The notes beneath the pieces are model-generated. The model did not search any database, was not told where the DNA came from, and saw only the letters and a program-made list of their open reading frames with translations. A program made the translations under genes and the position numbers. A stretch of DNA of 43,460 nt, taken from a virus (lineage: Duplodnaviria > Caudoviricetes). Shown one piece after another: positions 30,657 to 43,245 of this stretch. Location of the stretch: positions 1 through 43,460 of IMG/VR virus record IMGVR_UViG_3300048599_000747. One strand, 5' to 3'. Every line of letters begins with the position of its first letter. The stretch's first letter is position 1.

Positions 30657-30980
30657 TTACTCGACTTGAGAGGCGAGGTTGGTGAGGGCGTCGGCCGCTG
30701 CTTGTGCCTTGGTGGCGTTGTCGGCGGCTAGGGTCTGGATTTCCGCGAGTTGCTCGGGTGTGACGGTTGTCGCCTCAAGAGCGGCGATGCGGTCAGAGAG
30801 CGTCTTTTCGTCGGCTGCGATGTTGGTCACCGCATCGGAGATGGTGTTGAGAGCCGCTGCTGTAGTGGCTTCTGATGCCTGAATGTCTTCAATGGCCATA
30901 GACTGTTTCCTTTGGGTCTTTGTGATCTTGCAGAGTAACCCGAGGGTTAACATCTGCAGAATGATGGTGAGAGGGTTCAT
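30657..30980 (-). CDS. Ala-rich coiled-coil protein (alternative start at 30899)
   Basis: Heptad pattern; two possible starts, each with an SD-like sequence. Confidence 0.7.
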   Translation of the reverse strand: MNPLTIILQMLTLGLLCKITKTQRKQSMAIEDIQASEATTAAALNTISDAVTNIAADEKTLSDRIAALEATTVTPEQLAEIQTLAADNATKAQAAADALTNLASQVE

Positions 30981-31047: not shown

Positions 31048-31530
31048 TTATTCCTCGTCGTTATCAGGTTCGATTTCACCACCCTCAGGCGTTTCCGTTC
31101 GCTTTCTGATGTCGTTCACGATACCGACGATCTCCTTGCCAATGTTCATGTTCGCGTCAACCTGCAGCTGATCCTTGCGCCCCCAATCATCCGGCTTTCG
31201 GCGTTCAAGCATCCAAGCCGCTGCATGCCAGTCCATCTCCTTTGTTTTAGTCGTTTCGGTTGACGTTCCATCTGGACTAATCTTTACCTTGGTGGTGACA
31301 ACCTCATGTTCGGTGCCGGCTTTGGTGATGATCGAAACGAGGTGAACTTCCCATTCGGCTTCCGCGCGCGCGATGAGCTCCGCAAAATCCGCGTAACGCT
31401 TCAACCACCGGGCGAGTGTGTCTTCGCTTATTCCTCCATAAAGACATGCTGCTCGACGGGTGTTTCCGGTCTTAAGCGCCTGGGCTATTCGGTCGGCTCT
31501 CTCTTGGGTGAATTTCGGTTTTCTTGCCAT
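31048..31530 (-). CDS. terS: Terminase small subunit-like HTH protein
   Basis: MARKPKFT...GNTRRAACLYGGISEDTLARW HTH and WHAAAWMLERRKPDDWGR motif. Start re-called to 31530. Confidence 0.75.
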   Translation of the reverse strand: MARKPKFTQERADRIAQALKTGNTRRAACLYGGISEDTLARWLKRYADFAELIARAEAEWEVHLVSIITKAGTEHEVVTTKVKISPDGTSTETTKTKEMDWHAAAWMLERRKPDDWGRKDQLQVDANMNIGKEIVGIVNDIRKRTETPEGGEIEPDNDEE

Positions 31531-32203
31531 TTTGAGTCTGGAGCGGACGGGTCGGATTCGAACCGCCTTCTTCCGTCTGGGAGACGGTTGCATCACCAAT
31601 AATGCTTCGTCCGCGCTTAGGATACGACCTCGCAAGGGGTAGGAGCCGCTCGCGGCTGCCTTTATCGAGGGGCATCAAATACTTGTGCTTTCCTGGCTTT
31701 TTCACGTATTTGAGGGCCGTTCGGTCGATCTGATGACCCGTTTCGATACGTTTGCTGATCGTTCTCGGATGGACAACACGGCCATCGAGCAAAGGATATT
31801 TGTCAGGCTCAGTTCGGCCGACATAGATCCAATTGGATGCTTGATAGATCGCTCCGAGATGTCCCTCAGCCGGATCAGCATATGAGACGATGAGCTTGAG
31901 CCCTGGATACCGACGCTTGATCATCCGAATGGCCACCGAAAGTATCTTCGAAACGTGGGCTTGATGTCTCTTCAATGCAACCCTCACGAGCTCGCAGACT
32001 TGCGTATGCTTTAAGCCGTATGGCTCGCCGATGTGATTACATGCTCCAACTCCGAAAATGACGGCGCCGATAAAGATTCCTGACTCCCACACGCCGATTC
32101 TCGCAAGCTTCCCAGCCGGCATTCGTCTAGAATAGTGCCAATGCTCGACGGCGTATTTTGATGCTACGAACGTGCACCAATCGAGCTTAAGGGATCCACT
32201 CAT
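31472..32203 (-). CDS. mom: Mom-family adenine modification enzyme (GNAT fold)
   Basis: HWHYS, IGAVIFG, CELVRVAL and IVSYADPAEGHLGAIYQASNWIYVG motifs. Start re-called to the ATG at 32203. Confidence 0.88.
   Translation of the reverse strand: MSGSLKLDWCTFVASKYAVEHWHYSRRMPAGKLARIGVWESGIFIGAVIFGVGACNHIGEPYGLKHTQVCELVRVALKRHQAHVSKILSVAIRMIKRRYPGLKLIVSYADPAEGHLGAIYQASNWIYVGRTEPDKYPLLDGRVVHPRTISKRIETGHQIDRTALKYVKKPGKHKYLMPLDKGSRERLLPLARSYPKRGRSIIGDATVSQTEEGGSNPTRPLQTQNGKKTEIHPRESRPNSPGA
31539..31614 (-). tRNA. Non-canonical tRNA-Gly(CCC)-like RNA embedded in the mom 3' end
   Basis: GCGGACG AA GCAT TATTGGTG ATGC A ACCGT CTCCCAG ACGGA AGAA GGCGG TTCGAAT CCGACC CGTCCGC T CCA: a 76-nt cloverleaf with encoded CCA. 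Confidence 0.88.
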
Positions 32204-32732
32204 GACCACACTCCGGACAAACGGTTTTCTGCTTGGTGTCGAGTGCACCTTGATCTGTTGCTGTTCCGGGAGCGAAACTCGGTTCTTCAGCCAGGCTTGC
32301 AAGCAGTCGATCGAGATCTCCTTGTGAGTATCCGATGGATTCCGTCAAGTCTTCGACAACTAGAATCTCCGCAAGCAAACCCGCAAGACGTTCAGAATCA
32401 TTGGATCCCTTTTCCTGGGTGCGATTGTCGGCGATCGCGAATGCTTCAGCCTCACTCTTTGAGAGATCTGAGATGTCGATGCAAGGAACAAGCCAGTCGG
32501 AACCAGTATCCTCAATGCCTCGAGGAGCTGGTGAACCGTTTGCCTTCATTGTCTGGAGCGCAACCAATGCATGGTTTCCGGCCATCACAGTTCCTTTGTG
32601 GACCTTGAGAGCGCCGTTGAATCCAAACCTCGTGATGCTTGCGATGATCGCGTTTACGTCGCCGACTCGGTAGTTTCTCTCCCACTTCTTGAGTCTCGAA
32701 AGCTCCATCATAGAAACCGTTGATTTACTCAT
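32187..32732 (-). CDS. ParB/Srx N-terminal-domain protein of the type linked to DNA-modification genes
   Basis: IIASITRFGF, VMAGNH and AFAIADNR motifs; C-terminal CPECGHEW knuckle. Confidence 0.85.
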   Translation of the reverse strand: MSKSTVSMMELSRLKKWERNYRVGDVNAIIASITRFGFNGALKVHKGTVMAGNHALVALQTMKANGSPAPRGIEDTGSDWLVPCIDISDLSKSEAEAFAIADNRTQEKGSNDSERLAGLLAEILVVEDLTESIGYSQGDLDRLLASLAEEPSFAPGTATDQGALDTKQKTVCPECGHEWIP

Positions 32733-42288: not shown

Positions 42289-43245
42289 ATGGCGAACGTT
42301 TTCAGCAATGCACCAGAAGTCGCGGGAATAGCGCGAAGACTGATAGGCCTACACCATACGCATCTAAAGAACATTCGAATCGATTATGTCTTTCGGTCGG
42401 AATCATCAAGCGACGGTGGCAAGGTCGTTTGGGCCTCCGCTCGAAAGATCACCGGTCTTAATGCTTTCCTTGCCACAGAATCGGATGAAAGCTTTGAGTT
42501 ACAAGGCGACCCTGATACCGATCAGTTCTTTTGCATTGAGGTGTGGGAGGATGTTTGGGATCGCTTGAAGGACGAACAGAAGGAAGCTCTTGTAGATCAC
42601 GAGCTTTGTCACTGCTGGGCTGAGGAAGCCTGCAACGCAGAGGGCGATTCGATACTCAAACTCAAGATTCTTCCTCATGACGTGGAGGAGTTCGCGAGTG
42701 TCATCCAGCGTCACGGCCTTTGGAAAGATGATGTCAAAGTGTTCGTCGAAGTCGGCAAGAAAGCGATGGTTGACGACGTCATGCGCAAGGGGCAGGAGCT
42801 GTTCGATGACTACGATCGACATGATGAAATGAAGATATTTAGCGAGGAAGTCGATCTCATGGTCGACGGCATTCCCATGAAGATCATCGTTAGCTTGGTG
42901 GACGAAGGATTCCTACTCAAAGCCATCAGGAAAGACGATGGCCAGGTGTTCCTCGAAACCACCTTCGTTAATCGAGAAGAAGTTCTGGACTGGATCAAGG
43001 ACTGCAAGGTAGCAGGGGAATCACCTGACACTGCAAAGAGATCGAAGCGGTCAAAAGTGAAGAAAGCTGAGGTGGCAGCATTCGCGGTCGTTGAAGGCGG
43101 TCCTGCCCCTATCGAAATTGATGCTTCGATCCCGACCAAACGCAAATGCCTTTCTTGTAACGGATCGGGAGAAAACTCGTTTGGTGAGCCAGATGCACCT
43201 TGTGGCATGTGCGACGGGACCGGAGAAATTGAGGTGTCCGAATGA
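42289..43245 (+). CDS. Putative phage metallopeptidase with a C-terminal CxxCxGxG zinc finger
   Basis: LVDHELCH and PHDVEEF motifs; CLSCNGSG...CGMCDGTG. Confidence 0.82.
   Translation: MANVFSNAPEVAGIARRLIGLHHTHLKNIRIDYVFRSESSSDGGKVVWASARKITGLNAFLATESDESFELQGDPDTDQFFCIEVWEDVWDRLKDEQKEALVDHELCHCWAEEACNAEGDSILKLKILPHDVEEFASVIQRHGLWKDDVKVFVEVGKKAMVDDVMRKGQELFDDYDRHDEMKIFSEEVDLMVDGIPMKIIVSLVDEGFLLKAIRKDDGQVFLETTFVNREEVLDWIKDCKVAGESPDTAKRSKRSKVKKAEVAAFAVVEGGPAPIEIDASIPTKRKCLSCNGSGENSFGEPDAPCGMCDGTGEIEVSE

Follow-up and report, generated by a model that had tools for sequence, protein, structure and literature searches.

A known relative of the system considered here is phage Mu's Mom enzyme, which moves glycine from Gly-tRNA-Gly onto N6 of adenine (PMC13219725). 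The use of this donor by Mom, mentioned in a preliminary description of the locus discussed below, is therefore on the published record. All three E. coli glycine isoacceptors serve the Mu enzyme and Gly-tRNA-Ala does not, and the same report names residues important for Mu Mom (H58, Y59, R111, S124, D149, Y159, R151, W48, and W181). Overexpressed Mom is lethal (PMC7261163). A second body of work concerns a staphylococcal aminoacyl transferase, which is inhibited because EF-Tu sequesters Gly-tRNA (PMC7826273), and this sequestration would supply a motive for a glycine donor that avoids EF-Tu. The main text and preprint of PMC13219725 make no mention of "phage-encoded tRNA" or "neighborhood", the searchable portion of its supplement holds nothing relevant, and a literature search covering few subscription papers turned up no description of a tRNA linked to mom.

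The mom locus of the provirus

The window analysed here, 43,460 nt long, spans an entire provirus record. On its minus strand, three consecutive genes overlap one another in turn: a gene for a ParB-N-like protein of 181 aa (32732-32187; ParB-like PHROG 620/723, E 9e-26/2e-23), which overlaps the start of mom; mom itself (32203-31472; 243 aa); and the terminase small subunit gene terS (31530-31048; PHROG 4102, E 1e-22), which is overlapped by the mom tail. The most likely start of mom is the ATG at 32203, not the TTG at 32302. A scan for promoters and terminators returned matches at chance level only.

The protein is firmly identified as Mom, a GNAT enzyme, by its profile matches (Pfam PF25680, 154 bits against a cut-off of 27.1; PDB 8BV8, E 8e-12; PHROG 1384). 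Pairwise alignment with Mu Mom gives 27% over 205 columns and extends up to SYPK, the end of the window's Mom core (32203-31616); the natural end of the Mu protein is QPYPK. Equivalents of Mu H58 and Y59, of the catalytic R111, S124, and D149, and of Y159 are retained in this alignment, and R151, W48, and W181 are replaced by A, V, and V, respectively. The position of R151 is occupied by residues other than Arg throughout the window's Mom clade, and since this residue is essential in Mu, identical chemistry is not assured.

What follows the core is a 76-nt tRNA-Gly-like RNA (31614-31539), whose first nucleotide, G1, lies one base beyond the codon matching the last residue of Mu Mom, the Lys of YPK. 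The C-terminal tail of the annotated protein is therefore best seen as read-through of the RNA, and the peptide RGRSIIGDATVSQTEEGGSNPTRPLQ is the RNA translated in the Mom frame, just as the preliminary description had read it. The mom ORF continues for 22 codons beyond the CCA, and terS starts, at 31530, 8 nt past it.

The acceptor stem of the RNA (GCGGACG/CGTCCGC) is Watson-Crick paired at 7 of 7 positions and is followed by U73 (31542) and an encoded CCA. Positions 8 and 14 are A and U, the 4-bp D stem is GCAT/ATGC, G18G19 is present, and A27.A43 forms a mismatch in the anticodon stem. The 7-nt anticodon loop, CU-CCC-AG, retains U33 and carries the CCC anticodon at 31581-31579, and the variable loop has 4 nt. 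In the T arm (31567-31550), a stem of GGCGG/CCG-A-CC closes a TTCGAAT loop, from which an additional A (31552), the hallmark of the family, bulges out between positions 63 and 64. The bacterial tRNA-Gly identity set (G1-C72, C2-G71, U73, C35, and C36) is complete, and all the structural details first described for this RNA, from stems, A8/U14, bulge, CCC, and CCA to the GlyRS elements, are present in the sequence. The predicted fold is more stable than chance would give (z = -3.17), with none of 200 shuffled sequences equally stable.

Judged against canonical elongator tRNAs, the window RNA has G18G19, U33, the T54-psi55-C56 motif, a 7-nt anticodon loop, and CCA, and it is missing U8-A14, an uninterrupted 5-bp T stem, and a paired 27-43. 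ARAGORN calls it at its default threshold as tRNA-Gly(ccc), the sole tRNA in the window, and with 30.2 bits it just passes the cut-off of the Rfam tRNA family (RF00005), set at 29, with no match to Rfam families other than tRNA. The initial expectation of a copy overlooked by annotation thus failed, as far as ARAGORN is concerned, for the window RNA. It does hold for most of the relatives described below, as ARAGORN at default settings calls a glycine tRNA at the mom end in just 9 of 80 homologous loci, and none of 20 family loci compared with Rfam reaches any cut-off. By sequence comparison the window copy is among the most canonical of its family and may for that reason be shut out of translation only in part; with U33, G18G19, TTCGAAT, and the 7-nt loop kept, it could still decode GGG.

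Several other features of the window deserve mention. A solitary 37-nt hairpin resembling a CRISPR repeat lies on the minus strand at 31020-30984, its 3' end 3 nt ahead of an ORF start at 30980 (Rfam CRISPR-DR9, 33.2 bits, below the cut-off of 45; E 5e-5). It occurs once in the window, and a pattern search of viral contigs found no relatives; it could be a lone repeat unit like those of RNA anti-CRISPRs, or a Cas6 site. Also on the minus strand are an LPD3 domain fused to the portal protein (30011-27972), a PolX-like thumb-domain protein (35652-34256), and an N6 DNA methylase (8347-3656). The window further includes a glycosyltransferase and a radical-SAM-like gene, which together with the PolX-like protein and the methylase may mean that additional modification systems are encoded by this phage.

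Linkage between the RNA and mom

The preliminary description proposed that mom homologues be scanned for adjacent cloverleaves with glycine anticodons, and such a tie emerged whether the search began from mom or from the RNA. Starting from mom, 80 loci were kept of 87 confirmed relatives in viral contigs. A structural parse of these loci, scored for G1 and U73, places the element directly after YPK in 79 of 80; a stricter parse does so in 74 of 80, against 7/79, 2/80, 1/80, and 1/77 at control offsets. A covariance model finds matches in 77 of the 80, one per locus, with the 34 full-length copies from which it was built matching by construction. The same model matches 78 of 80 loci in a second Mom clade (the best 80 of 168), where one further copy is recognizable by eye as degenerate and one locus has none, and 9 of 9 in a third Mom set, each of these two sets including its own query locus. 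Among prokaryote genome contigs the RNA is found at 10 of 13 mom loci, the three misses being weak partial matches. The Mu clade is devoid of it, with no RNA at any of 44 mom loci, 27 of which have at least 150 nt of downstream sequence. The mom loci in all of these counts are not phylogenetically independent.

Cultured phages provide a few copies. Salinibacter phage B2_17 has a bulged copy immediately past the mom stop, Arthrobacter phages Shade and Sicarius2 have unannotated copies without the bulge, and Microbacterium phage Appa has a near-canonical tRNA-Gly convergent with mom. No such RNA lies near mom in 10 of the 14 cultured phages examined, including Mu, phiEf11, and PM87. In one subset of cultured phages 7 of 8 are without RNA at mom, as are the loci L074 and L460, and a blastn search of the element against cultured phages found no match. 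Loss of R151 was considered as a sign of RNA presence and was rejected, given that RNA-less phiEf11, L074, and PM87 also lack this residue. A quick Mom tree (54 rows, unrooted, with long branches, and used only for spread and nesting) distributes RNA-bearing Moms over many deep groups, sets Mu beside an RNA-bearing clade, and nests RNA-less phiEf11 and L074 within the window's clade. Though the tree is unrooted, the RNA has likely been lost in some Mom lineages.

The reverse search used a motif made of the bulged T arm and the acceptor end, with no reference to Mom, and yielded 80 of at least 120 loci in viral contigs and 80 of at least 120 in metagenome contigs. Matches without a matching 5' acceptor arm (7/80 viral, 5/80 metagenomic) were removed before counting. 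Among the viral matches listed, 70 of 73 elements adjoin mom: 60 follow it, 8 lie at its 5' end, and 2 follow truncated Mom fragments. The other three of those listed have no Mom; one is truncated, one faces another GNAT, and one comes after a glycosyltransferase-like gene. Pfam confirms Mom in 45 of 45 neighbours tested. Among the metagenomic matches listed, 65 of 75 adjoin mom, in 47 cases at its 3' end, in 17 at its 5' end, and once in convergent orientation, and the 10 in which purpose-built HMMs detect no Mom include several that are truncated or retain a KPYP remnant. A few elements (L116/L226, L284, L290, and L279) have no mom within 1.5 kb. The position of the RNA varies by lineage, being at the mom 3' end in some and at the 5' end in others. 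A related motif occurs 7 times in 602 genomes of two phyla, and the full acceptor stem is present only in the one match linked to mom. By these comparisons the element is not a housekeeping tRNA; it is a real RNA family, conserved and specific to mom.

Some unusual arrangements were encountered along the way. At L098 (35-556) the bulged element faces a GNAT not recognized as Mom by Pfam, and the element at L116/L226 comes after the glycosyltransferase-like gene; possibly these two genes encode other client enzymes. Tandem Mom paralogues lie at L135 (1009-1671 and 1823-2485), the first with an RNA at its 5' end. Partial or orphan copies at L243, L251, L252, L265, L279, and L264 are on cellular-looking contigs, two of them near transposases, and would be remnants or integration scars. 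In a Planctomycete genome (L488, G002:C4:1-2493), 23 tRNA genes whose acceptor stems are atypical form a dense array.

The ParB-N-like protein had been put forward as a partner of the RNA. Where the upstream sequence is long enough, a ParB-like gene is indeed found ahead of mom, in 62 of 65 and 69 of 71 loci, but one also precedes mom in phiEf11, which has no RNA, and so nothing ties the protein to the RNA. On this evidence ParB-N is a usual neighbour of mom and not specific to RNA-bearing loci.

Features kept and lost in the RNA family

The cloverleaf covaries in a test of the kind proposed earlier, and it does so with the bulged T-stem register included. In 34 ungapped copies pairing is complete (100%) in the acceptor stem and likewise in the bulged T stem. 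Two-sided changes occur at 16 of 21 pairs, a count reached by none of 500 shuffles, although related sequences can inflate a test of this kind. Slid registers pair only 33-45% in the same copies, and RNAalifold selects the bulged register unprompted. The anticodon stem is 72% paired in the fixed register, since one subgroup is shifted by a base. Among 122 unique copies from the Mom-first set the bulge is present in 117 and missing from 5, and the bulged base is A in all 117; each of the five T-stem pairs of the bulged register includes cells that have changed and yet remain paired, such as A50-U64 (12 times) and A51-U63 (5 times). Taken together, these comparisons indicate that the bulge is under selection. 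Nor does conservation of the element appear to be driven by the protein: a four-fold codon site is invariant (CCG in 34 of 34), the stems have no synonymous variation, and both the reading frame through the RNA and the position of the stop differ between loci.

The 122 copies also allow the features of the family to be sorted into those kept and those decayed. An NCC anticodon is found in all 122, U73 in 117, G3-C70 in 116, and an encoded CCA in 88. The pairs G1-C72 and C2-G71, which the parser behind the 122 copies required, were found in 63 of 63 copies with a parser that favours G1; the 122-copy parser also missed L013 and L078, both of which the structural parse and the covariance model found. 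The features kept agree with the glycine identity set of bacteria (PMC9976931). By contrast, U33 remains in just 29 copies, U8 in 11 (A8 stands in 103), and the TTC of the T loop in 21 of 117, with TGC in its place in 51 of 125 copies. Short forms of 70 nt or less, lacking a proper D arm, make up 58 of the 122. Anticodon usage is skewed as well (ACC 58, TCC 53, CCC 11, GCC 0), and ACC is rare in bacterial tRNA-Gly. Retention of the GlyRS determinants along with decay of the decoding features is the pattern expected of an RNA that GlyRS reads and the ribosome does not.

Two details of the window RNA at first seemed patterned and did not generalize. The A8/U14 arrangement had been taken as a swap of the invariant pair, but positions 8 and 14 in 90 full-length copies are AA 37, AU 22, UA 20, AC 10, and UU 1, so the family appears to have lost the pair rather than swapped it. 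In the alignment of relatives, the A27.A43 mismatch is not a family feature.

Variants of the RNA were seen at a few loci. At L414, L420, L250, L255, and L281, two different short Mom RNAs stand in tandem, mostly 1 nt apart, in the manner of a small tRNA operon. Two 5'-type copies, L469 and L470, have A73 in place of U73. A73 is the archaeal and eukaryal glycine discriminator (PMC9976931), and its presence may reflect a different host GlyRS.

Proposed function of the nested RNA and its known counterparts

The reading that best accommodates these observations, with a probability of roughly 0.7, is that the mom-nested RNA is a dedicated glycine donor for Mom that avoids EF-Tu, and that its excision would also destroy the mom message. 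The RNA would be cut from the phage transcript by RNase P and 3' nucleases and charged by the host glycyl-tRNA synthetase, the T-stem bulge is predicted to weaken capture by EF-Tu, and Mom would take glycine from its own nested RNA much as Mu Mom takes it from published Gly-tRNA-Gly. Under the rules of tRNA processing, a cut at G1 would leave a mom message without a stop or without a start. Excision would thus remove the stop codon in the 3' type and the start codon in the 5' type, and since the RNA is traversed by the mom frame at both gene ends, one transcript would give enzyme or carrier RNA. Such nesting would hold a toxic enzyme in check and at the same time build up its co-substrate. The core of the preliminary description, a dedicated glycyl donor, has strong comparative support, with the mom linkage, the kept GlyRS determinants, and the lost decoding features on its side, and without the swap, A27.A43, and ParB-N details. 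Since Mu Mom uses all host isoacceptors and RNA-less Moms exist, the RNA would be an optimisation and not a requirement.

The bulge, between positions 63 and 64, lies inside the EF-Tu contact region. The pairs G49-C65, G50-C64, and C51-G63 sum to -10.0 kcal/mol by the rules of PMC3239215, which do not cover bulges; the same three-pair sums average -10.8 and -11.0 for the Gly classes and reach -9.5 kcal/mol for a staphylococcal donor. Counting against the bulge as a block to EF-Tu are the 5 unbulged copies among the 122, together with Shade and Sicarius2, as well as a T-stem bulge at 51a in selC* tRNA-Cys that is dispensable for suppression (PMC5389517).

The geometry of the nesting could also be read as the work of a tRNA mimic that acts only in cis, a place in the mom mRNA where cleavage occurs or where Mom or GlyRS binds, which limits a toxic enzyme and has no donor role. 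The mom stop lies beyond G1 in 153 of 155 3'-type loci. Of 31 5'-type loci, 29 have a Mom frame that stays open across the RNA; 28 offer a start codon no more than 60 nt upstream, and only 7 have a possible start beyond the RNA. The lethality of overexpressed Mom would give such control a purpose. RNase P, moreover, also reads a 3' RCCA. Yet mere cleavage would not need the C35C36 found in 122 of 122 copies, and the copies in tandem (5 loci), entirely past the mom stop (B2_17, L043, L121, and L124), or convergent with mom (L234 and Appa) have no means of acting on the mom frame in cis and speak for an additional importance of the RNA as a free product. The 3' overlap itself may be frozen compaction only, as G1 abuts the YPK codons. 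A role confined to cis is unlikely on balance, and cis control could in any case coexist with the donor role.

Another possibility is a general phage tRNA-Gly, a supplement to translation or a decoy or replacement against host nucleases and toxins that acetylate tRNA-Gly, kept near mom because Mom drains Gly-tRNA. The window copy does pass ARAGORN and Rfam, the relatives in Appa, L019, and L076 are near-canonical, the few elements away from mom would fit, and the toxin TacT reads U73 and G71 of tRNA-Gly (PMC9976931). Decoding is implausible, however, for most of the family, given its many short forms, its losses of U33 and TTC, its lack of GCC, and its 58 ACC anticodons; the codon that the window copy would read, GGG, is the rarest glycine codon in the 15 large ORFs of the window (91/660), and selection on the bulge also counts against ordinary service in translation. 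This explanation is quite unlikely. An attachment-site remnant, decaying pseudogene, or by-product of protein conservation is very improbable: tRNA 3' ends often serve as targets of integration, the window itself comes from a provirus, and the Rfam score is low, but about 10 kb separate the element from the recombinase-like gene (42289-43245), it tracks mom at either gene end through varying frames and stop positions, and the covariation of both RNA halves, the codon invariance of the stems, and the retained features largely refute such an origin.

If the donor reading is correct, it assigns a concrete task, open to testing, to one class of phage tRNAs, whose purpose has long been in question, and shows a way in which a DNA-modifying enzyme could obtain activated glycine that EF-Tu normally sequesters. 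The RNA would be a natural minimal GlyRS substrate and a candidate EF-Tu antideterminant, useful for delivering amino acids orthogonally. By its presence many phages are marked as predicted carriers of glycine-modified adenine, and cultured systems with the element are at hand in Salinibacter B2_17, Arthrobacter Shade and Sicarius2, and Microbacterium Appa. Annotated Mom tails and leaders are read-through products of an RNA mostly overlooked by tRNA finders. The broader proposition of an undescribed and widespread RNA class, an enzyme-nested aminoacyl carrier pared (to 64-68 nt without a D arm) to the parts recognized by GlyRS and Mom, shielded from EF-Tu by its T-stem bulge, found at either gene end, and silencing a toxic enzyme by its excision, stands at about even odds.

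With ordinary tRNA-Gly (Rfam RF00005) the Mom RNA shares the cloverleaf, the identity set, and CCA, and the window copy passes both ARAGORN and Rfam. Unlike the family, the host tRNA-Gly(TCC) of prophage-bearing genomes has canonical U8, A14, U33, and TTC and an unbulged T stem. The window Mom belongs to the same family as Mu Mom (PF25680, PDB 8BV8), with a C-terminal YPK and 6 of the 9 listed key residues. Mu differs in using host tRNA-Gly, its clade being without the RNA (0/44), and in having R151, W48, and W181, which are absent from the window Mom. The selC* tRNA-Cys and the (8/4) tRNA-Sec are likewise specialised tRNAs whose T stem has one bulged A (PMC5389517, PMC7609411). Those molecules have an 8/4 architecture with the bulge at 51a on the 5' strand, whereas the Mom RNA is 7/5, has its bulge on the 3' strand (63/64), and is of glycine identity.

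A further parallel is with the staphylococcal NP1-NP3 tRNA-Gly species, donors for FmhB, FemA, and FemB (PMC7826273, PMC3239215). These likewise have glycine identity and often a TGC T loop, as in 51 of 125 Mom RNAs; their predicted EF-Tu binding is weaker, as that of the Mom RNA may be too, and both they and the Mom RNA are paired with a GNAT-type aminoacyl transferase. The NP1-NP3 stem is A49-U65/U50-A64/A51-U63 with a UCC anticodon, and the window RNA has a bulged stem of G-C, G-C, and C-G with CCC. The Mom RNA is moreover phage-borne, nested in the gene of its enzyme, and often without a D arm, and its acceptor is DNA. By analogy, then, it would work like a staphylococcal non-proteogenic tRNA-Gly without being a member of that group.
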